NCBI GenBank assembly: GCA_964354365.1 | Contig: CAYGZM010000004.1 | Coordinates: forward strand, 1,559 to 65,558 | Reading direction: 5' to 3' | DNA from: an uncultured Pirellulales bacterium | Lineage (GTDB): Bacteria; Planctomycetota; Phycisphaerae; Sedimentisphaerales; Anaerobacaceae | DNA: 64,000 nt | Notes under the pieces: generated by a model | What the model was told of the DNA's origin: nothing | What the model saw: the letters and a program-made list of their open reading frames with translations, nothing else | Databases searched by the model: none | Made by a program: the position numbers and the translations under genes | Shown here: piece by piece, positions 6,958 through 55,213 of the stretch | How the letters are laid out: the number at the start of each line of letters is the position of its first letter | Position numbering within the stretch: the first letter of the stretch is position 1

Positions 6958-9900
6958 TCAGCGCACCAGGCTTTCTCGGTATTCGTTTGCCGCCCGGTCT
7001 ATCCGCTCGAGCAGTTGCGCGGCGCCGCGATTGTCCGGGTCCAGCGACAGCTCCAACCGGCAGGCCCTCCTCGCCGAGAACATGTCTCCCGACCGGGCAT
7101 AGGCGGCAGCCAGCGCGTAATACACGTTGGGCAGCGTAGCGCAATTCATCGCCGCCTTTTCGAGGTGCTTGACGGCCCGCAGCGCATCGCCTTCATTCAA
7201 ACAGCGAAAACCTTCCCTGAAAAGTTCCTCGGCAGCCGGCCTATTCTCCATCTCCAGACAATCCAATAACAGCTTCGCAGCGTTCCTTGCCGAGCCTAAT
7301 ACCACCTCCCTCTTGGCGGCAGACAGCAGCCCAGCGCGGAGGCCGGCATCCATCTGCCGCCCAAGAGCCTCGCACTGCCCTGCGACGATTTCGGGCGCCT
7401 GGTGATACGAGCTTTCGATACATTTGAGGGCTGCCGAGAGGTTATCTCCCTTGAGAAACTCGCTTATGGGCCTCAGGGCAATGCCGGCGGGCGTCAGCTC
7501 CCAGGCGGCGTGGGACGTATATGCAAAAGAGGTATCGTTCCCGGCCAACTCCAGATTTCGCCGCACCTCAATATCGAAACTCCTGGCCTTTTTGCCGCCC
7601 GGGACGTGCGAGAAGTCGTGGTTCTGATGAATGATTGTGACCTTGCTGCTTGCATCAATGACCGGCCGGCCCGCCAGCAACGCCTCTCGAACAAGCCAGT
7701 TGTCCCATACATTCCGCCCCAGCGCCAGCGGCGGAATTTCCGGCCACAGACCCTTCTTGAAGGCGAAATAGTCGATGCCCGTCGGCGCGTGGTAAGCGCC
7801 CTCTCGCCCGGCCCGGTCCATCAGCCGCTGCTGCCAGTCTTCTGCGCCAAAATCAATTTCCTGCGAAATATCAATATCCCACCGCCGACCAACCATCAAA
7901 AATTGACTGAACCGCCGGGCGACATTCCCAATTGCTTCGGTGAAATTATCCATAAGGATTATGTCGGCGTTGACATAGACGCATATCTCATTCGACGCGG
8001 CGGCCTGAGCCTTTTGAAATATATCGTCGAGCAGCGGTGTCCCGAATTCATTCCGCTCCACATTTGGAATATGCCTGCAACCGTACCTGCGAGCGGCATC
8101 AGCGACCCCATCATCGTCTCCCAGAAGAATGATTTCAGGACTTGGCATCAACCGCATCCAACTCCTTATCGCGTTTCTCTGGATCGTTGCAAAGAGACCC
8201 GTAAATCCCTTGGGCATCGCAAAAATGGTGAAACCTTTAAGCTGACCCTGCCGAGCCTGCTTTGAAATACGACCCTGTTCTCCGGCTGCATGATTCTTTA
8301 CATCTTCATAGAGAATCCGGGCGTTCGGATGAGCAAAACTGCTGCTGACCTCCGCCTCCAGCATCTTCGCGGCCAAATCAAATCGGCCAAGTCTCACAAG
8401 ACACACACCCATCCCGTAGAACGCCCCACTGATGTTTGATGTAAGACCAGCCGCCCGATTCAAACAGCCCAGGGCTTGGTCTATACGGCTTGCCGCAAAC
8501 AATTCAATCGCACGCCGGCACAACGCCCCCGCCTGTTGACCGGCTGCAACATCTTTCTCTTCGTAAATACATATTTGGTCCACGGGGTTATGATGCAGAT
8601 TCCCCGTAAGGCTATTGAATCCCTCTAAATCGAAACCCTCCCCGGCCGTGTTTGCAGGACCCGCGGGGCACTCAAACATTACCACCTTGCCGCCCGGTTC
8701 GAAAATCAAGTCGACCTTGTTGCGATTCACCCACTCCATCAGCGGCACTATTTCCGGAAAGCCTATGAAGAAGCCCCCTTTCCAGTAGGGCGCATAATGA
8801 CCCTCAAAACAGCCAAGATAATCGATCTCCTTGTCAACAACCTGCTTGAAGAATTCTGAAACGCTACGCTCCGACACTTGCTCACTGCAATACCACAAGT
8901 CATCCACCGCTATCACGTGACTTCGCGGCAAGGCCGGCACGGCATTATTGAGAACATGTGCCATAATCGGAGCATTTGGGGTGTCATGCGCATCAACATA
9001 AAGTATGAGTCTATCCTCTTCAGACCAGAGCCGCCTGAAGTCCGTTTTCAGAATGTCTTGTTCAAGAAGTCTTACTCCGGACAGTTCAACAGGAAGGACT
9101 TTTTGGCTTCTAAACAGTGGCTTGAATGACAAATCAATAGCAATCACTTCTGCTTTGCTTTTAGCCGCAAGCCAGGCACGCAATGAAAGACCCGAAAGGG
9201 TGCCCAACTCTACGATCCTGGTAGGCTCGTATCTATGAACGAGATCGAGCAGCATATTCAGCGATTTAGGAGTCTGGTCACGGTAATAGAGACGATTTTG
9301 AGTTAATGCCAGTGTATCAATCCATTCTTGAAACGGTTTGCGGTCATTATCCTGCGAAATTACGTTCCTGTTTGTCATCTGGCCTTTCCATCGGCCGCTA
9401 ATCACGTATTCCTTAAATTCAGTCTGTGCATAGCCCCAGTGTTCATTATTATTTGTTATTGGCTTACCAGCCTCTATCATCTGCCGGCACCAGACAAGGT
9501 ATTCTTTTTGATAGTCGAGACCCAGCCGTGACAGAGCTACGGCTCGGCAGGTCGGACAACGTTCCGTTGTGAGTTTCTGTTTGGCCTCATCACTAACAGC
9601 CCAGCTCATATCATGCTCAATGTGGTAAATTCTCATAGGCTCGGGCAAAATAACCTGATGCAGGCCGCTGACATAGGCCATATGTAGTAGTAGCCCATCT
9701 ACATAAATAGACCATTTTCGCAGTTCCGGATAAGCTCTGAACAAATGCCAATTAGTACGTGACATCAGCGTGAAATCACCACATCCATTCGTATGCAGCT
9801 TTTTATCCTTACTGTCATAAATGAAGTGGTCCGATTCCATTTCCGATATTTTCTTGGTACCATATAGCCCATGAACACGCACAATATTGTTCCGGCAAAA

Positions 9901-11958
9901 CTCCAACTGTTTGTTAATATCTTTACACTCAGGCAGTATTTTGCTACCTACATCATGTCGGTCGATACGATAGAAACAGTTCTCATCGAGTCGGCCGCCT
10001 GCTAAAAACTGCATCAGCTTATTAGAAAACAGAATGTCGATATTGGTCGCTAATACAAATTTTCCCCTTGCCCGTCTGATACCCACGTTCTTGGCTATCA
10101 TTTGGAAAAATGGGAGCTTATCTGAATTGCCAATGCTGTTATGAATTTCTGCCGGTACCTCGATGAATCGAACCGTCAAAGGGCCCAGGTCATCCGGCCA
10201 GTCAAGAACCTCATGGAGTCTTTTACTATCTGTCGGCGGATTCCACTCAACGATTATAAGCTCTGCATCAAGGTTGAACCGCTTGCACTGTTCAGCAAGT
10301 CCTTTTGCAAATACCTGCATCCGGTGTAAAATATTTGCATCATAGTCATCATTCCGAGAAGCGACCACAATACTCAGATACTTTTCATCAACTGCATGGC
10401 TTACTGTCTTATCTAAGATTTTTTCTTGGTTGTCTTGTTGTATTCTCGACACTGGGACAGCACTTAAGCGTTTTTGTGTCTTTGGCAGTTTAGTTGAAAG
10501 AGTAGGAAGACTAAGCGGTTTTCTGGATGCGACAAACACAGACCTTGTATTAACTCTACCTTTAACAGGTGCTGGCCAATTCAGTGGAAACTCATGATGG
10601 TCAGGTTGTGTAATTGTTACATATACAAACGGAAAGTACTTCTTAAGTTCGGCCAGAACCCAGTCTCTACCCGGACAACATCCAATCCCTTCGATACTTT
10701 GATTAAGATGATTTCTGTTTTCGCTTGTAGGGTTAATTTCACCGTTATCTACAGTACTAACACATGTTTCAATCAGAAAAAGCTTACGACAGACTGAGGA
10801 TAGCTCTTTAATACATAAGCTTGGATTACTGAGATGATACAAAGTCCCGTAACAGTAGATAATATCAAACTCTCCGAAACGCTTATGACTGCCTGGGACA
10901 CTTAAATCTGCCAATTCGACTTTCCGGTGGGGATATCGACGCACATGCTCCGCAACATTTTCAGGACGTGCGTCGGTTGATAAAACCTTGCAGCTAAGTT
11001 CCTCAAAAAATGCAGTGTGCCACCCCAGACCCGAACCGACCTCCAAAACAGATTGGTGAGCTAATTCCAACCCTAAAGAGCCCAAATGTTCCTGCCTGGC
11101 TTTGTTTATCTCGATTGCGACCTGGTCATCAAACACTTGAAAACCTATTGATTTGGTATTAGATTGATTTTGTGGCCGCTTTCCAGGTAATTCAAATGCA
11201 CAAGACGGAGATGTAATTATGTGGGGTTTCGTCACGCTTACTCTCTTAGACTGATAGAAATACATATCTTCATGACTGACTTTTGCGTAACTATACCCTA
11301 ATGATGTAAGAAATTTTACTATTTCACTTGGAAGGTACCCAAATTGTTTAGCATTGCCTTCATAATATTCACAAAAGATATTCGGACGGCACTGCCTTAT
11401 AAATTCTTCAGCTCCTCTTAAAACAAATAGTTCGCAACCCTCAGTGTCAATCTTGAGCAAATCTACTTTGCCAATCCCATATTCCCCTGCAAAATCATCA
11501 AGCCGTCTAACCTCAACTTCATATTCAACCCATTCTGTAAATCTCAAAGGTTTCCCTATACAAGCCAACCCTGATTTCATTCCCGATTTTGGATACTTCA
11601 ATACTGCCGTGCCGTTCTTATCTGCCAGAGCCAGATGAAGAGCTTTAACTCTATCCTGAAGATTATTCATGATTATGTTTTGCTTTAAGACTTCGAAAGT
11701 AACAGGCGCAGGCTCAAACGCATAGCTTCTCATTGCTGGATTCATCACGGCAAGCATAGAAAATGCACCGGTATTTGCACCTACGTCAAGAATAACCGGC
11801 GATTTGTATTCCAGTGTCCTTTCATAGAAAAACCGCAGCTCATCCATCCCCCACGCGGTAGGTATCCCGTTACGAAGCTTGCCCTCCCAGCAGCCGCCTA
11901 TTTCAGCCGCTCTGGCATCAATCTCTACCTTGAAATCGTCTAACAAATATGCCTTCAA
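6958..11958 (-). CDS. Giant (1666 aa) polyfunctional glycan-modifying protein: FkbM-type MTase + class I SAM MTase + GT2-like + second class I MTase-like + TPR + uncharacterised GT-A-like module + TPR
   Basis: Single 5-kb ORF. Residues about 50-225 are FkbM-like (ILDVGANTGAFSMLAV ... IDTEGCELFVLRGAEEFI). Residues about 290-400 (VLEVGSGLGWHTAFFEELSCKVLSTDARPENV) carry SAM motif I. Residues about 525-790 (LSIVVASRNDDYDANILHRMQVF ... LIIVEWNPP) are GT2-like. Residues about 880-1000 (RIVELGTLSGLSLRAWLAAKSKAEVIAIDLS) are MTase-like. Residues about 1215-1450 (FTIFAMPKGFTGLFATIQRNAIRSW ... VYVNADIIL) are uncharacterised. TPR-like stretches lie near residues 1110-1200 and 1520-1666. Confidence 0.7.
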   Translation of the reverse strand: MKAYLLDDFKVEIDARAAEIGGCWEGKLRNGIPTAWGMDELRFFYERTLEYKSPVILDVGANTGAFSMLAVMNPAMRSYAFEPAPVTFEVLKQNIIMNNLQDRVKALHLALADKNGTAVLKYPKSGMKSGLACIGKPLRFTEWVEYEVEVRRLDDFAGEYGIGKVDLLKIDTEGCELFVLRGAEEFIRQCRPNIFCEYYEGNAKQFGYLPSEIVKFLTSLGYSYAKVSHEDMYFYQSKRVSVTKPHIITSPSCAFELPGKRPQNQSNTKSIGFQVFDDQVAIEINKARQEHLGSLGLELAHQSVLEVGSGLGWHTAFFEELSCKVLSTDARPENVAEHVRRYPHRKVELADLSVPGSHKRFGEFDIIYCYGTLYHLSNPSLCIKELSSVCRKLFLIETCVSTVDNGEINPTSENRNHLNQSIEGIGCCPGRDWVLAELKKYFPFVYVTITQPDHHEFPLNWPAPVKGRVNTRSVFVASRKPLSLPTLSTKLPKTQKRLSAVPVSRIQQDNQEKILDKTVSHAVDEKYLSIVVASRNDDYDANILHRMQVFAKGLAEQCKRFNLDAELIIVEWNPPTDSKRLHEVLDWPDDLGPLTVRFIEVPAEIHNSIGNSDKLPFFQMIAKNVGIRRARGKFVLATNIDILFSNKLMQFLAGGRLDENCFYRIDRHDVGSKILPECKDINKQLEFCRNNIVRVHGLYGTKKISEMESDHFIYDSKDKKLHTNGCGDFTLMSRTNWHLFRAYPELRKWSIYVDGLLLHMAYVSGLHQVILPEPMRIYHIEHDMSWAVSDEAKQKLTTERCPTCRAVALSRLGLDYQKEYLVWCRQMIEAGKPITNNNEHWGYAQTEFKEYVISGRWKGQMTNRNVISQDNDRKPFQEWIDTLALTQNRLYYRDQTPKSLNMLLDLVHRYEPTRIVELGTLSGLSLRAWLAAKSKAEVIAIDLSFKPLFRSQKVLPVELSGVRLLEQDILKTDFRRLWSEEDRLILYVDAHDTPNAPIMAHVLNNAVPALPRSHVIAVDDLWYCSEQVSERSVSEFFKQVVDKEIDYLGCFEGHYAPYWKGGFFIGFPEIVPLMEWVNRNKVDLIFEPGGKVVMFECPAGPANTAGEGFDLEGFNSLTGNLHHNPVDQICIYEEKDVAAGQQAGALCRRAIELFAASRIDQALGCLNRAAGLTSNISGAFYGMGVCLVRLGRFDLAAKMLEAEVSSSFAHPNARILYEDVKNHAAGEQGRISKQARQGQLKGFTIFAMPKGFTGLFATIQRNAIRSWMRLMPSPEIILLGDDDGVADAARRYGCRHIPNVERNEFGTPLLDDIFQKAQAAASNEICVYVNADIILMDNFTEAIGNVARRFSQFLMVGRRWDIDISQEIDFGAEDWQQRLMDRAGREGAYHAPTGIDYFAFKKGLWPEIPPLALGRNVWDNWLVREALLAGRPVIDASSKVTIIHQNHDFSHVPGGKKARSFDIEVRRNLELAGNDTSFAYTSHAAWELTPAGIALRPISEFLKGDNLSAALKCIESSYHQAPEIVAGQCEALGRQMDAGLRAGLLSAAKREVVLGSARNAAKLLLDCLEMENRPAAEELFREGFRCLNEGDALRAVKHLEKAAMNCATLPNVYYALAAAYARSGDMFSARRACRLELSLDPDNRGAAQLLERIDRAANEYRESLVR

Positions 11959-11987
11959 TTATTAACCTTTTAACACTTCCGGTGCTT

Positions 11988-12830
11988 TCAACTCTTTATT
12001 CTTGCCGTTACACATAAGTGCCAACCGCACCTTCGTTCCATCCAGCGAAAGACCTTTTCAGGAAGATAGCGAAAATACCATACCTTTTTGTACCGATACG
12101 CTTTGTAATCCTCGATGCGATAGGGAAAAATATGTTCGACTTTCGTCTCCAAGACCTCAAATCCTTCAAGCAGCTCCTCTATGCTTCTCTTTGTAAACGT
12201 ATAAGTGACCGGGCAGCCGGTTTGAGCTTCGGAATATCGTGCAATCAGCTCATCCAGTCTCCAAAACGCCCCTTTGGCGTATGTCATCAGCATCGCGAAC
12301 ACCTTCCACGAACGCCGATGATAAACCATTATCTTCAAAATGCTCCGCGGCCCCATATATTTGCGGATCTCGGAAATGGCCCTCGCAGGACGCGGAGTAT
12401 GGTGAATTACGCCGAAAGAATAAACCAGGTCGTACTCGCGCACCGGCACAACCTCGGAAAGCTCCTCGGCATTCGCCTTGTAAAAATCAATCTTTAATCC
12501 ATAAACACCCGCCCGCTTTCCGGCGATCTCTAGCGACTTTGCCGAGTAGTCCACCGCCGTGACCTTCGCCCCGGCTCTGGCAAAATTGATGGTATCGGTT
12601 CCTATTCCACACCCCACCTCCAGCACACTCTTATCCTTCCATCGTTCAAACTGTGCAAAGCCCCGAATATGCGGCTCAACGAAATACTTCCTTGCCTCAA
12701 CCTCTTCAAAGTATTCGCGGCTCCCGGCTTCACGCGGAGAATGATGCAGATTGCAGGGCCTGGCGTCCCAGAATGCCTCAACCTTCTCCATAGCAACATG
12801 GGCAAAGTTTTTTACACTGTCGGCAGACAT
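11988..12830 (-). CDS. Class I SAM-dependent methyltransferase
   Basis: VLEVGCGIGTDTINFARAGAKVTAVDYS supplies GxGxG motif I plus an acidic motif II. The size (280 aa) fits. An alternative start at M14 (12791) would remove the 19-nt overlap with the upstream gene. Confidence 0.85.
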   Translation of the reverse strand: MSADSVKNFAHVAMEKVEAFWDARPCNLHHSPREAGSREYFEEVEARKYFVEPHIRGFAQFERWKDKSVLEVGCGIGTDTINFARAGAKVTAVDYSAKSLEIAGKRAGVYGLKIDFYKANAEELSEVVPVREYDLVYSFGVIHHTPRPARAISEIRKYMGPRSILKIMVYHRRSWKVFAMLMTYAKGAFWRLDELIARYSEAQTGCPVTYTFTKRSIEELLEGFEVLETKVEHIFPYRIEDYKAYRYKKVWYFRYLPEKVFRWMERRCGWHLCVTARIKS

Positions 12831-50786: not shown

Positions 50787-50983
50787 ACCTCTCTGGCATT
50801 ATCGGCCAAAACAACCCCCTAAAATACCAAACATTGCCAAAATTTCCCACCCTGCCCGCCCCCAATCTGAGATATGAAACTTGAAATCTTGAATTGACCC
50901 TCCCCCTCCGTCCCGTCATTGCAAGGCCGCCAGGGGCGGGGCAATCTGTCGTCCGGCAAGCAGAGTAAGCTGTTTGTGCGTTT

Positions 50984-51212
50984 GAAATTGGGTTTGATTG
51001 GGTTTGTATTTCGTATCGCGTATTGCGTATTGCGTATCGCGGGGGGACTGTTTTTGTATCTCGTATTTCGTATTTCGTCCCGGCGTGGCGGGGGAATTGG
51101 GTTTGATTGGGTTTGTTTTTTCGAGTCGGTTGGGGAAGGTTTGTTTTCATAATTCCTTCTGATAAAGGGAGTTGCGTTGGGTTTGGCCTTGGAAGAATTG
51201 GGTTTGTTTTGC
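50984..51212. repeat. Composite repeat block: ATTGGGTTTGATTGGGTTTGT units plus heptamer arrays (CGTATTG / GTATTTC)
   Basis: ATTGGGTTTGATTGGGTTTGT occurs at about 50987 and about 51097, with a partial copy at about 51196. CGTATCGCGTATTGCGTATTGCGTATCGCG lies at about 51013-51042. GTATCTCGTATTTCGTATTTCGT lies at about 51054-51077. Confidence 0.85.
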
Positions 51213-51602
51213 AAAAAACAGGGCGATTTGTAGAGGAGTCTCTACAAGTGTAGAGGGGAGGCAAGCTGGGCAGAATGGGCGGATGGGGCAGAAGACAGAA
51301 GACAGGAGACAGAAGGGAGGAGAGAGGAGAGGGATTCCCGATGAATCGGGATGTTCGCTTTACTGCGACTTCGCTTAGACATTGATCACCTCCTATTTTG
51401 TTAGATGTATATTATACATCAAAGACAGTTGGGTGTCAAGGAAAATCCCCAATAACTGCAGACGCCGTTTTGAGCAAAGCCTGCACTGAACACAGCCGAA
51501 GTGTCGAAGCATGGTGAATCTCAAAATCACCCCCCAACCGAAGCCAGATTCGTTACAACCCCGATTAAGCCCCCGGCCCACCTTCGCCGTCGCCCCCCTT
51601 TT

Positions 51603-51679
51603 GTCATTTCGACCGAGCGCAGCGAGCGGAGAAATCTACTCAAACTCGTCATTGCGAGGCCCCGAGGGACGTGGCAATC
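51603..51679. repeat. Two adjacent family C repeats
   Basis: GTCATTTCGACCGAGCGCAGCGAGCGGAGAAATC followed by GTCATTGCGAGGCCCCGAGGGACGTGGCAATC. Confidence 0.8.
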
Positions 51680-51729
51680 TCAATCTCCCCGCTCATCGCG
51701 AACGACTCCCTTAGGGACGATGCCGGACT

Positions 51730-53232
51730 CTACGCCAGTTTGTAGGCGATTTGTTCTTCGAGGATGTCTTTAACGGTAAACGCTATTATGCTCTTGCCGC
51801 TCTTCTTGAAGAACGACTGTATTTCGCTGATTGCGTCGGATGAGAAATCGAAGGAAACAAAGAACCCTTTTGTTCGGTCTTCGCGCATCATAACGGCCTC
51901 AAAGGCATCAATATCGGGACGGCCAACCTTGTCCTTCTGCTTGACCTGGATGGGATACCATACATCCATAAAGTCCAGCTCGCCCTTCTTTTTCTTTGGC
52001 GTAGCCGAGACCGGATAAATTCGCCCATCGATACCCATATCTCCGACCTGCGCCTTATTGGGAATACCGCCCAGCGCGATGACCGCCCAGTTCTCAAATT
52101 CAAACGGCGGAATCTTGCGAAGCTGCTCCTCGCTCCACGGCAGGTCGCGCACGACAAAGCCCCGGCCAATCCGCCAGAGCTTTTCATCTTCTTTCATACC
52201 GCAGACACCCCGCAAACGCTTTGCCATTACCCGGCAGGCGGTCGGCGAAATATCAATACCAATCCATTGCCTGCCCAGATTTTCAGCAGCAACGAGGGCA
52301 GTACCGCACCCGCAAAAAGCGTCGAGAACAATATCGTTTGGATTAGAGCTTGCCTTGATGATCCGCTCTAATAACGCGAGCGGTTTTTGGGTTGGGTAGC
52401 CGAGGCGTTCGGCTGATTGAGCTTGTATAGGCGGAATGTCACCCCAAATACTATCAACCGGATTCCCTTCCTGCTCATCCAAGTAGCGTTTCAATGCGGG
52501 AACAGCACCGGGTTTGGTTTGGATAACGAGACCCTTTTCATAAGCCTCTTGCATACGCTCTTTTGTCCAGCGCCAGACGCGTTTAACACCGAGGAATTCA
52601 TAGGTGAGATTGGGTCTGTCCTTGTTGGGGTTTGTTAAATCAGCTAACCGATAACACCGTCCAGTTTCAGGTTCAACATATTTGTAAAAAGATTCGACAT
52701 AATCTTTGTTGTGGGGCAGGTATTGGCGATTAAAGGTATAGTCATTGCTTTTAGTGTAATAAAAAATTGTGTCATGGTCGTTCGGAAAAGAACGGAAAGC
52801 CAGTCCTTTGGCATTAGTTCGACGCCAGACAATTTCCGTCTGAAACTGGTTTTGGCTGAAAATCTGGTCGAGCATAATTTTGACGTAATGTGACGCGTGC
52901 CAGTCGCAGTGGTAATAGAACGAGCCGGATTTCTTCAAGACGCGGTGAAGTTCCACGCAGCGCGGCCGCATAAAGTCGATATAGGCCTGCGTCGATGCGT
53001 GGCGGTCTTCGAATGCGCGTTTTTCCTTTGTCTCGCCCCAGAAGACTTCATAATTGCGGTTGGAGTTAAAAGGCGGGTCGATATAAATCAGGTCAATGCA
53101 CTCATCAGGAAATTTTTTCAACTGATCGAGATTATCGCCACAGTAAATGACCCTCGTATCGACCAAAGCCGAGGGCCTGCCGCCCGCCGGGGTTTTCATA
53201 GAATCGGATGCAGTTTTCTTTGCCATAGGCAA
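51730..53232 (-). CDS. DNA N6-adenine/N4-cytosine methyltransferase (beta-class) fused to a C-terminal Mrr-like PD-(D/E)xK nuclease domain
   Basis: Motif IV IDLIYIDPPFNSN precedes motif I VLDAFCGCGTALVAAENLGRQWIGIDIS, which is the beta permutation. The C-terminal 130 aa (GDMGIDGRIY ... VWYPIQVKQKD ... DIDAFEAVMMRE) resemble the restriction-endonuclease (Mrr_cat) fold. G+C is lower than the surrounding genes by eye. Confidence 0.85.
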   Translation of the reverse strand: MPMAKKTASDSMKTPAGGRPSALVDTRVIYCGDNLDQLKKFPDECIDLIYIDPPFNSNRNYEVFWGETKEKRAFEDRHASTQAYIDFMRPRCVELHRVLKKSGSFYYHCDWHASHYVKIMLDQIFSQNQFQTEIVWRRTNAKGLAFRSFPNDHDTIFYYTKSNDYTFNRQYLPHNKDYVESFYKYVEPETGRCYRLADLTNPNKDRPNLTYEFLGVKRVWRWTKERMQEAYEKGLVIQTKPGAVPALKRYLDEQEGNPVDSIWGDIPPIQAQSAERLGYPTQKPLALLERIIKASSNPNDIVLDAFCGCGTALVAAENLGRQWIGIDISPTACRVMAKRLRGVCGMKEDEKLWRIGRGFVVRDLPWSEEQLRKIPPFEFENWAVIALGGIPNKAQVGDMGIDGRIYPVSATPKKKKGELDFMDVWYPIQVKQKDKVGRPDIDAFEAVMMREDRTKGFFVSFDFSSDAISEIQSFFKKSGKSIIAFTVKDILEEQIAYKLA

Positions 53233-53401
53233 TTAGTTTAAACCCCGCCCAATAATTTGCAAGTGCCTACTGGCGAAAAAGAATTCATCCCGTTAAACTA
53301 CAAAGAAAATACGCAGGGATAGCCACCCACTCATAAATGGCTGGTGACGGTGCACAGGAAACGGCGACTGTCCCTGGATTTCTTAACGCTCAAAGGCTTA
53401 T

Positions 53402-54961
53402 ATGGCCATTCATGAAGAATTATTTAAAGAATTGATGCTGCATGAGTTTGCAACTGTAACCGATGAGAATTTAGCAAAGTTGGGGGCACTGATAGACACT
53501 TCAACTGATTTGCAAAAAACGGAAGGTCTCAATTATGCCAAAACCAAAATAGCAAATTTGCTTTCGTCAAATTTAGATAATGATCACAAAGCAATACTTT
53601 ATTTTTATTTCGCCAATATATGGGAAGGATTACGTGTACTGAAGACTAAAGATACTCAAGCAAGTTGGGATTGGCATCAAGAAGAAATTGAACAAACAAT
53701 ATTAAATTTAAGATTATCAGCTAAATATTCCTCTGATAAGTTCCCGTATTTATGCCCGGTACACACAAATTTGGGGAATATGTTTAGCCATATTGGCCGT
53801 TTTGTTGAAGCTATAGATTATTGGAATGCTGCTTTGAAAGTTTGTGATAGCTTTGCAATGGCTATCGCAAATAAAGGCTATGGCTTAAGTTCATATGCTT
53901 ATGCAATATATGATAGCGGTCACAAACTTATCTTTCTTAAATTTGCATACGATTACTTGAAGCAAGGCTTAAAAGGAAAATATCTACATGAAACTGCCAT
54001 TATTTCATTCCAAAAAATATCTAAAGATATAGAAGGCAGGGTCAATAAAGAATATTTGGAATCGGAAATTACCTTACCTGATTATAAATTAGGCAAAACA
54101 ATCGCTGAAAAAAACTATCGAAAATGGTGCCTCCAAAAGTGTCTTTTTCTCAATCCACTCAACGATTTAGGTCCTTTCAGTATTGCAGCCAGAGATATTT
54201 TACACTGTCCTTCAATAACTACAACTATTTCCGAACATGATTCACCAAATCCGCCAGTTTATTATGCTTTTTATAATCAGCTTAAGCAAGAGTATGTCTC
54301 GGCAAGGTTCCTTTTATATGAATGTCTAAAATCCAATAAATCCCACTTTTCTGACCGAGACGTTCTAATATATAATACGCTTGATTACTCCTGTTTCGGT
54401 CTAAATGTCGAACAAGCAAAGATTTCCTTTAGAATGATCTATTCATTATTTGACAAAATTGCATTCTTTCTTAATTGTTATCTCAAATTACAAGTACCAG
54501 ATCGGAATATAGCTTTTAAAACCATTTGGTACAATAACCAACACAGAGCCGAAGGCTTACACAAAATATTTAGCCAAATGCGTAACTGGCCATTTCGAGG
54601 CTTATTTTGGCTTGCAAAAGACTTATCTGAACAGCGAACCGAGTTTGCAGATTCTATTGAACCAGACGCGCAAGATCTCGTCACAATACGAAATTTTATC
54701 GAACATAAATTTTTAACTCTACATCAAATGGATTTAGTAAACTTTATAGAACCTCAAACTAAGGATGTTACTTATCCAGTCTATTTCCAAGATTTCGCAG
54801 ATAAAACTTTGAGGCTTATGAAATTAGCTAGAGCGGCATTGATATATTTGTCACTAGGTGTTCATATTGAGGAAAAGAAAAAACATACCAATGGTGAATC
54901 CCAAATAATCGGTCAAATGCCGCTAACTGCATGGGAAGATAGCTGGAAAACCCATTTTTAA
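53402..54961 (+). CDS. TPR-like N-domain + C-terminal HEPN domain protein (LA2681-like HEPN family candidate)
   Basis: 519 aa. Strongly AT-rich codon usage. The C-terminal region MIYSLFDKIAFFLNCYLKL ... WPFRGLFWLAKDL ... VTIRNFIEHKFLTLH contains the HEPN Rx4H motif (RNFIEH). The N-terminal half is helical-repeat-like (HTNLGNMFSHIGRFVEAIDYWNAALKVCD). Confidence 0.7.
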   Translation: MAIHEELFKELMLHEFATVTDENLAKLGALIDTSTDLQKTEGLNYAKTKIANLLSSNLDNDHKAILYFYFANIWEGLRVLKTKDTQASWDWHQEEIEQTILNLRLSAKYSSDKFPYLCPVHTNLGNMFSHIGRFVEAIDYWNAALKVCDSFAMAIANKGYGLSSYAYAIYDSGHKLIFLKFAYDYLKQGLKGKYLHETAIISFQKISKDIEGRVNKEYLESEITLPDYKLGKTIAEKNYRKWCLQKCLFLNPLNDLGPFSIAARDILHCPSITTTISEHDSPNPPVYYAFYNQLKQEYVSARFLLYECLKSNKSHFSDRDVLIYNTLDYSCFGLNVEQAKISFRMIYSLFDKIAFFLNCYLKLQVPDRNIAFKTIWYNNQHRAEGLHKIFSQMRNWPFRGLFWLAKDLSEQRTEFADSIEPDAQDLVTIRNFIEHKFLTLHQMDLVNFIEPQTKDVTYPVYFQDFADKTLRLMKLARAALIYLSLGVHIEEKKKHTNGESQIIGQMPLTAWEDSWKTHF

Positions 54962-55213
54962 TAATAACTATTTTTTGCAAAACAGTTAATTTGCTATGTC
55001 CGCACAAACTTCAAGCTTGTAGGATAGGTAATTCATTGCCCATGCTGTTTAGGGAAATATAAAAAAACCGCAAAAATCCCTTGTCCACCGCAGGCGGATT
55101 TATCTGCCGCATAATATCCGTTAACGAACTACGAACAATGAACTACGAACCCCGCCTTCGGCGGGCCTTCAAGACTTCACAAACTTGCCCCGCCTGCGAA
55201 TTTCTGATCCTCA

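Follow-up and report, generated by a model that had tools for sequence, protein, structure and literature searches.

The LA2681 family of HEPN proteins was described in a 2013 survey (Anantharaman et al., Biol Direct 8:15, PMC3710099), in which the TPR-HEPN architecture is catalogued in Table 1 and LA2681 is recorded as fused to TPR or in an operon with TPR, with no restriction-modification link. The same survey sets out, as a general rule, that HEPN and abortive-infection effectors gather round restriction-modification genes. Beyond this survey, LA2681 was not found in the main text of the literature searched, and an entry in the DefensePredictor supplement lists an Escherichia coli LA2681 protein as 'Predicted novel defense gene'. 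No paper describing a fusion of a beta-class DNA methyltransferase (methylase) with an Mrr-type nuclease was found in the literature searched, which also held no experimental data on this fusion or on the LA2681 HEPN family. A gene for a protein of each kind is present in the stretch of DNA analysed here, 64,000 nt of contig CAYGZM010000004.1 from an uncultured Pirellulales bacterium (the window; coordinates count from its first letter).

The two genes are long, divergent open reading frames (ORFs) encoding proteins of 500 and 519 amino acids (aa), with 169 nt between them. An alternative ATG at 53226 is likely to be the true start of the methylase gene, as it predicts a protein of 498 aa, as in the homologues, and extends the intergenic gap to 175 nt. 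The initial annotation of this DNA had assigned beta-class methyltransferase, Mrr-like nuclease and HEPN domains to the two products, and all three assignments were borne out by Pfam matches above the gathering score. The divergent arrangement that it described was likewise confirmed from the ORF coordinates.

Both genes are best read as known kinds of defence gene that are individually mobile. The reading that we favour, with a probability of roughly 0.68, is that they are two independent single-gene defence modules that came to lie side by side because defence genes commonly cluster, one predicted to encode a compact single-chain restriction-modification enzyme and the other a stand-alone TPR-HEPN abortive-infection RNase. 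This reading is preferred because the pairing is not conserved, the cassette boundaries are separate and the compositions differ, and because near relatives of the HEPN gene have different neighbours and the fusion gene is without a conserved neighbour.

Conservation, boundaries and composition of the gene pair

Relatives of the HEPN gene were examined in 80 genome loci, fetched with up to 10 kb on each side, and the fusion protein was compared by tblastn with 86 HEPN loci. For the methylase side, 80 metagenome loci encoding fusion relatives with 67–92% identity were used. A full-length homologue of the fusion was found beside the HEPN gene in only 1 of the 80 genome loci (L024; 40.7% identity, convergent, 44-nt gap), and a plain beta-class methylase gene was found downstream of the HEPN gene in locus L045. 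LA2681 HEPN was present in none of the 80 methylase-fusion loci, and the pair was found on none of 32 viral contigs, 10 of them with the HEPN family and 22 with the fusion family. These sequence comparisons do not support a conserved two-gene system made up of a methylase-Mrr fusion and an LA2681 HEPN protein. The pair had been put forward as an undescribed defence combination, with neighbourhood conservation set beforehand as the criterion, and as such conservation is essentially absent the proposal is not supported. The locus adds one example of defence-gene clustering, and adjacency alone does not define a system.

The boundaries of each gene were examined using blastn, with positions 48–58 kb of the window compared with all fetched loci. 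DNA similarity to relatives of the methylase gene extends from the stop codon (51,722–51,734) to 30–80 nt upstream of the start (53,262–53,313), and similarity to relatives of the HEPN gene extends from 53,381 to 54,987–54,995. The ~70 nt located between the two blocks match neither family. As the blocks of similarity are separate, each gene is considered to be its own unit.

The HEPN gene has a GC content of 0.344 and a GC content at third codon positions (GC3) of 0.287, compared with a GC content of 0.539 for the window and GC3 values of 0.66–0.67 for the two genes to its right, in agreement with the AT-richness reported in the initial annotation. For the methylase gene, the GC content is 0.494 and GC3 is 0.565. 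Tetranucleotide usage was scanned in 251 overlapping 1.5-kb segments (L1 distance; median 0.257, standard deviation 0.069), and the HEPN gene was found to have the largest distance of all 251 (0.67), whereas the distance of the methylase gene was an ordinary 0.286, exceeded by 58 of the 251 segments. The compositional island is the HEPN gene alone. The two-gene low-GC islet proposed for this locus is thus retained for the HEPN gene and not for the methylase gene.

A comparison with the flanks in other hosts gave a similar picture of the two families. HEPN genes in 75 loci were on average 7.3 GC points below the host flanks, with 44 of the 75 more than 5 points and 25 more than 10 points below, and the gene in the window differs from its flanks by -19.5 points. 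Fusion genes differed from the host flanks by a mean of -1.0 GC points (45 loci). The HEPN gene is a recent import with a strong signature of horizontal acquisition, and it would have been inserted as a cassette beside an already resident methylase gene. As the GC contents of the two genes differ, the HEPN gene is the sole outlier and the blocks of homology are separate, transfer of the pair as one unit is not supported. The suggestion of a horizontally acquired anti-phage module therefore holds in so far as the HEPN gene was acquired and both genes are of defence or selfish type, but it is not supported for the two genes as one module, as their compositions, boundaries and divergence profiles differ.

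The fusion protein and the TPR-HEPN protein

The fusion protein matches the Pfam family N6_N4_Mtase (PF01555; aa 46–336, E 4.8e-53, 180.8 bits against a cut-off of 26.7) and, marginally, Mrr_cat (PF04471; aa 374–473, E 2.1e-5, 25.0 bits against a cut-off of 21). Motif IV (DPPF, aa 52–55) precedes motif I (FCGCG, aa 306–310), which is the order found in beta-class enzymes, and the closest sequences in the PDB are the beta-class methylases 8urk, CcrM (6pbd), M.MboIIA and M.RsrI, with a weaker match to EcoP15I Mod. DPPF, FCGCG and the residues E380, D398, D402 and Q429-V-K431 of the nuclease domain are invariant in 70 of 71 aligned family members, and the same methylase and nuclease catalytic residues are kept in the 40%-identical homologue encoded in L024. 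A profile search of PDB sequences with the nuclease domain gave no match, and an AlphaFold2 model of the nuclease part (aa 346–500), built from a shallow alignment of 20 sequences, had a mean predicted local distance difference test (pLDDT) score of 50.5, too low for the model to be of use.

Identity to the window protein is lowest in the central segment of the fusion, at 0.41–0.66 for aa 141–270 compared with 0.78 for the N-terminal part, 0.86 for the part binding S-adenosylmethionine and 0.80 for the nuclease. In many relatives, blastn detected nucleotide similarity on either side of the central segment and none across it. As beta-class enzymes have their recognition domain at the place occupied by aa 141–270, this variable segment is presumed to be the target-recognition domain, and its sequence pattern suggests diversification of specificity.

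Relatives of the fusion with 85–96% identity are abundant and occur in many samples, many of them in Sedimentisphaerales or other Planctomycetota, and the family was also found on 9 plasmids and 22 viral contigs. Among the 80 metagenome loci, no conserved neighbour was found (the largest neighbour family occurs in 3 of the 80), nor was a cognate separate endonuclease or other conserved partner. PADLOC classified the fusion only as a generic MTase_II/III or an orphan methyltransferase. An exhaustive search of representative sequences with a profile of the C-terminal domain yielded metagenomic fragments for the most part, from which nothing further about the architecture could be learned.

Relatives of 165–168 aa annotated as 'restriction endonuclease' were considered as products of stand-alone nuclease genes, and this was ruled out when they were found to be truncated or interrupted copies of the fusion. 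A split two-gene ancestor of the fusion was dropped once these proteins proved to be remnants. In loci L167–L172, similarity extends upstream to aa 277, identifying 5'-truncated remnants of the fusion gene (aa 277–500) that had been called as 168 aa. The truncated remnant is present on 23 contigs, and the six shown (L167–L172) have in common a conserved element that contains DUF6876, hemerythrin and response-regulator genes, and also, in L170 and L172, a serine recombinase. In L173:3875–6973 and L174 (Sedimentisphaerales metagenome-assembled genome GCA_054642455.1), aa 123–332 of the fusion have been replaced by a T5orf172/MUG113 (GIY-YIG-like) ORF, and the N-terminal 132 aa and C-terminal 168 aa persist as separate ORFs. 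A gene encoding ApeA_NTD1 and HEPN_Apea domains is located 63 nt downstream of the interrupted fusion in L173.

We read the fusion as a putative self-contained single-chain restriction-modification enzyme because the catalytic residues are invariant, because the central segment is both the least conserved part and mosaic at the DNA level, and because truncated and interrupted copies exist. Conserved catalysis, variable recognition, the lack of a partner, scattered contexts and frequent decay together are the behaviour expected of a self-contained restriction-modification gene. The beta-class methyltransferase would mark host DNA, with the central variable domain determining the site, and the DPPF motif suggests, without proving, that the mark is N6-adenine methylation. 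The C-terminal Mrr-type PD-(D/E)xK domain would cut DNA that does not carry the mark, a dependence on methylation that we infer.

The HEPN protein matches HEPN_LA2681 (PF18733) over positions 4–204 of the 204 in the profile (aa 281–490; E 1.5e-70, 237.2 bits against a cut-off of 27). The Rx4-6H motif of HEPN domains is present as R430-N-F-I-E-H435, in which R430, N431, E434 and H435 are invariant in 18 relatives with 43–77% identity. In the N-terminal part, a single TPR_1 match (aa 120–148, E 3.6e-5) lies below the Pfam cut-off and no ATPase match to Pfam was found, and a profile built from relatives of the protein matches TPR proteins in the PDB. The AlphaFold2 model (mean pLDDT 70.9) consists of an all-helical repeat at aa 1–220, with pLDDT values of ~90, followed by a helical C-terminal half predicted with moderate confidence. 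A fold search with this model returned only TPR proteins, with weak scores (E ≥ 0.013), and no HEPN structure can be named as the closest. The 519-aa protein has the N-terminal TPR fusion given in the 2013 description of the family. No match to it was found in PADLOC, NCBIfam or PHROGs.

The closest relatives of the HEPN protein share 77%, 74% and 65% identity, after which identity falls to ~45%. The family is represented in methanogenic archaea and a wide range of bacterial phyla, with 1810 matches among the scored candidates and over 452 loci in species-representative genomes. It was also found on 24 plasmids, where NCBI annotation of the homologues uses the LA2681 family name, and on 10 viral contigs. 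Its distribution across bacteria and archaea is mostly solitary, and in most hosts its composition is foreign. The neighbours of near relatives vary, with a type IIG gene in L003 (77% identity), genes for DnaA and AhpC in L004, and an FRG-domain gene between housekeeping genes in L005. Plasmids and viral contigs carry members of both the HEPN and the fusion family, whose contexts vary and include other defence genes as neighbours.

We read the TPR-HEPN protein as a probable stand-alone, horizontally acquired RNase of the abortive-infection type, because the RNxxEH motif is invariant, because the family occurs on plasmids and viral contigs in these numbers, and because DefensePredictor lists the E. 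coli LA2681 protein as a predicted defence gene. The variable N-terminal TPR-like solenoid would act as a sensor or an auto-inhibitor, and when triggered by a phage the HEPN domain (RNxxEH), which probably dimerizes like those of other HEPN RNases, would cleave cellular or phage RNA. As the LA2681 TPR-HEPN proteins are widespread, repeatedly transferred and absent from PADLOC, they could add a new single-gene defence family.

That neither gene is defensive was also considered. The fusion would then be an orphan or regulatory methyltransferase with a DNA-binding Mrr-like domain, in keeping with its host-like composition, the lack of a separate cognate endonuclease or conserved partner and its generic or orphan score in PADLOC. 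However, a domain limited to DNA binding would not be expected to keep E...D...QxK invariant in 70 of 71 members, conserved regulatory methylases do not show such a variable recognition segment or such scattered contexts, and the genes found near the fusion include TIR, Abi_alpha, ApeA-HEPN, PIN and RAMA. The HEPN protein, missed by PADLOC and without a PHROGs or NCBIfam match, would be a selfish toxin or an RNA-processing factor, but its catalytic motif is invariant and its family carries repeated signatures of horizontal transfer. Though the lack of experimental data on either family in the literature searched is in line with this alternative, we consider it decidedly unlikely.

Restriction-modification genes and effectors near the two families

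A DNA methylase gene was found within 2.5 kb of the HEPN gene in 12 of 82 loci, in single-sequence phmmer searches that make the counts of methylase genes near HEPN genes lower bounds. This association of LA2681 with methylases, in ~15% of loci, goes beyond the 2013 family table. Locus L010 is also among the HEPN loci near Eco57I/MmeI-type single-chain enzymes.

Several points weigh against the view that the two modules are independent. The density of methylase genes within 2.5 kb of the HEPN gene is 5.1 times that found farther away in the same loci (13 vs 6 genes; binomial p = 5e-4), and at least six HEPN loci directly adjoin a gene for a single-chain restriction-modification enzyme. In four of these (L003, L027, L039 and L046), the gene for an Eco57I-like enzyme with an N-terminal HSDR_N-type nuclease region and TaqI_C is located upstream of, and co-directional with, the HEPN gene at a distance of 15–99 nt; that in L003, at 15 nt, is an Eco57I/MmeI-like type IIG fragment cut at the contig end and without the N-terminal part. 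An MmeI-family enzyme adjoins the HEPN protein in L038 and the beta-methylase-Mrr fusion does so in L024. The L024 pair, in an Armatimonadetes chromosome and thus in a distant phylum, is also a two-gene insert between housekeeping genes, and this recurrence exceeds random placement, though not defence-island clustering. Among ~72 fusion loci, 35 have a co-directional ORF no more than 60 nt downstream, which in 11 overlaps stop to start, and in L134 and L173 the fusion family pairs with another HEPN family, ApeA. Moreover, the nuclease and RNase activities of both proteins are predicted from sequence: the assignment to Mrr draws on a marginal Pfam score and motif conservation, and we infer the nuclease activity of the fusion as well as the RNase activity, trigger and defence role of the HEPN protein.

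These points could indicate a layered system resembling PrrC/EcoprrI, in which the TPR-HEPN RNase is restrained by, or monitors, the restriction-modification enzyme via its TPR and is released when a phage anti-restriction factor disables the enzyme. The same logic was proposed by Anantharaman et al. (2013, PMC3710099), who linked at least 16 HEPN clades to restriction-modification, and the 5.1-fold enrichment of methylase genes near LA2681 HEPN, the six adjoining single-chain enzymes (L003, L027, L039, L046, L038 and L024) and the co-occurrence of the fusion family with ApeA-type HEPN in L134 and L173 are in line with it. However, ~85% of HEPN loci are without a methylase gene within 2.5 kb, this HEPN is found in none of the 80 fusion loci, and the genes in the window are divergent, with separate boundaries and different composition. 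The class of partner also differs between near HEPN relatives, being a gamma-class type IIG enzyme in L003 and a beta-class enzyme in the window, and the 2013 table (PMC3710099) gives no restriction-modification link for LA2681. A functional link of the PrrC type is not supported, and we regard it as unlikely.

The ORFs downstream of the fusion gene encode products of various families, namely DUF6602, TIR, Abi_alpha, ApeA-type HEPN and HNH-like, with several that have no Pfam match (examples are L118:2785–3819; L123:1503–2423, TIR; L124:3041–4051, Abi_alpha; and L134:1784–3361, ApeA), and PIN and RAMA genes are among the other neighbours. From these sequences, the downstream position resembles a slot in which effectors vary, whereas the restriction-modification gene ahead of it is conserved. 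The fusion could then be a hub restriction-modification enzyme with interchangeable suicide effectors, for which the TPR-HEPN protein of the window and of L024 would be one more partner, with the TPR reading the state of the enzyme in the manner of a PrrC-like guard. If true, the single-chain restriction-modification architecture underlying such a guard would be one not described before, but we think this reading quite unlikely. The enrichment of methylase genes near HEPN genes and the variable effectors fit the general rule of the 2013 survey, and the pair in the window does not thereby become a system.

As a single-chain restriction-modification architecture, the 500-aa fusion would be unusually compact, and it would combine a recognition segment that can be swapped with a downstream slot for variable effectors. 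If active, it could provide a small programmable methylase-nuclease, and it would serve as a model of the recruitment of abortive-infection partners by restriction-modification genes.

Surrounding sequence and comparison with described systems

The features of the locus are listed in Table 1. The pair is flanked in the window by housekeeping genes, which on one side encode FlhA, a FliA-type sigma factor and unknowns, and on the other a GH100-like hydrolase, a GT4 glycosyltransferase, PIG-L, GH130 and a P-type ATPase. In a search for the empty site, the flanking genes were found in no fetched locus other than two identical Logan contigs, both of which break inside the methylase gene. The intergenic region between the two genes was scanned for a sigma-70 consensus promoter and none was found.

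Table 1. Features of the methylase-nuclease and TPR-HEPN locus in the window
Feature	Positions	Strand	Extent and basis
Predicted beta-class methyltransferase and Mrr-type nuclease fusion, 500 aa	51730..53232	-	aa 1–~345 methylase, aa ~350–500 nuclease; Pfam
Central variable methylase segment, presumed target-recognition domain (aa ~141–270)	52423..52812	-	Family identity, blastn
Predicted Mrr-type nuclease domain (aa ~351–500)	51733..52182	-	Pfam Mrr_cat, invariant residues
Divergent intergenic region	53233..53401		Conserved methylase 5' leader to ~53,313; ~70 nt unmatched; 21-nt HEPN leader from 53,381
TPR-like/HEPN_LA2681 protein, 519 aa	53402..54961	+	Solenoid aa 1–~225, HEPN aa 281–490; Pfam, alignment, AlphaFold2
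Repeat-rich non-coding stretch, 3' of methylase gene	50790..51729		Membership in either cassette not shown

The left flank includes ~940 nt (~50.8–51.7 kb) without a convincing ORF, in which short tandem arrays (periods 7, 10, 14 and 21) are dense and short direct repeats are present; AATTGGGTTTGATTGGGTTTG occurs there three times and a 34-nt palindromic unit twice. The right flank has only one 27-nt heptamer array (55124–55150), and similar small arrays were found at six other intergenic sites in the window, so that the initial description of both flanks as repeat junkyards is upheld for the left side and not for the right. The window contains no tRNA gene and gave no Rfam match, no integrase was found among the flanking ORFs scanned, and neither the HEPN cassette nor the pair has flanks that share a direct or inverted repeat of 10 nt or more. 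An integration hotspot at this locus, as had been suggested, is not shown.

A single 9-mer, AACCCCGCC, occurs at both 53,241 and 55,148, just outside the low-GC stretch of the HEPN gene; with ~0.16 such matches expected by chance, it is marginal and uninterpretable. A palindrome resembling repetitive extragenic palindromic elements, CATTCCTGCGAAAGCAGGAATC, is present three times in the window (32,724; 49,211; 57,727), where none is expected. The 28-nt inverted pair at 49.2 and 57.7 kb, which brackets the locus, was considered as the ends of an island and rejected, since an element also found at 32.7 kb is more likely to be a dispersed repeat. A decayed partner gene in the repeat-rich stretch was also rejected after tblastn of the neighbour proteins of related loci against positions 50.5–51.76 kb and 54.95–55.23 kb gave only weak low-complexity matches.

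Inside the repeat-rich stretch, positions 51,225–51,439 on the minus strand have the form of a tidy small transcription unit. A sigma-70 promoter with 12 of 12 consensus positions (TTGACA-17-TATAAT) is present, AGGAGG lies 6 nt ahead of the ATG of a 46-codon ORF rich in S, L and P (51,382 to 51,242), and the unit ends with a hairpin (TGTAGAG-ACTC-CTCTACA) followed by a run of T. The 3' half of the unit shares 79% identity over 135 nt with L108:58–191. Elsewhere in the window, a second compositional outlier is located at ~9,000–12,000 (GC content 0.41–0.45, tetranucleotide L1 distance 0.40–0.50), inside an ORF for a 1666-aa protein (6958–11958, minus strand) with an FkbM-type methyltransferase, a second methyltransferase domain and a C-terminal TPR.

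Among described systems, the type IIG, IIC and IIL enzymes (Eco57I, MmeI, BpuSI) share with the fusion a single polypeptide, the lack of a partner gene, variable recognition, mobility and frequent decay; in the fusion, methylase and nuclease are encoded in one ORF and no neighbour is conserved in 80 loci. However, type IIG-like enzymes are ~900–1200 aa long and consist of an N-terminal PD-(D/E)xK domain, a gamma-class methylase (Pfam Eco57I/N6_Mtase/MmeI_Mtase) and C-terminal TaqI_C/MmeI-type recognition, whereas the 500-aa fusion has a beta-class methylase, a central recognition segment and a C-terminal Mrr-type nuclease. No Pfam match to Eco57I, N6_Mtase, MmeI or TaqI_C was found in the fusion, which thus lacks the type IIG/IIL architecture. 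The type III Mod and CcrM-like methylases share the beta-class motif order and the central recognition segment with the fusion. It differs from type III Mod in having no Res helicase-nuclease partner and a nuclease that is fused directly, and from CcrM in its variable recognition segment and the lack of a conserved genomic context.

For the HEPN protein, the closest parallels in arrangement are PrrC/EcoprrI and RloC, which are HEPN anticodon nucleases encoded in type I loci. A HEPN RNase gene beside a restriction-modification gene is common to these and to the window, and the theme recurs at low frequency for LA2681. However, PrrC and RloC have an N-terminal ABC-ATPase and are encoded inside the operon, whereas the window HEPN protein has a TPR-like N-terminus, its gene is divergent and the pairing is not conserved. 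ApeA (Gao_Ape) is likewise a single-protein HEPN effector with a family-specific N-terminal domain, and is encoded near the same fusion family in L134 and L173, but it belongs to PF18739 with ApeA_NTD1, and apart from the fold class no similarity to the window protein was detected. With a full-length match to LA2681-like HEPN (PF18733), the RNxxEH motif and no structural difference from that family, the window protein is an ordinary LA2681 member.

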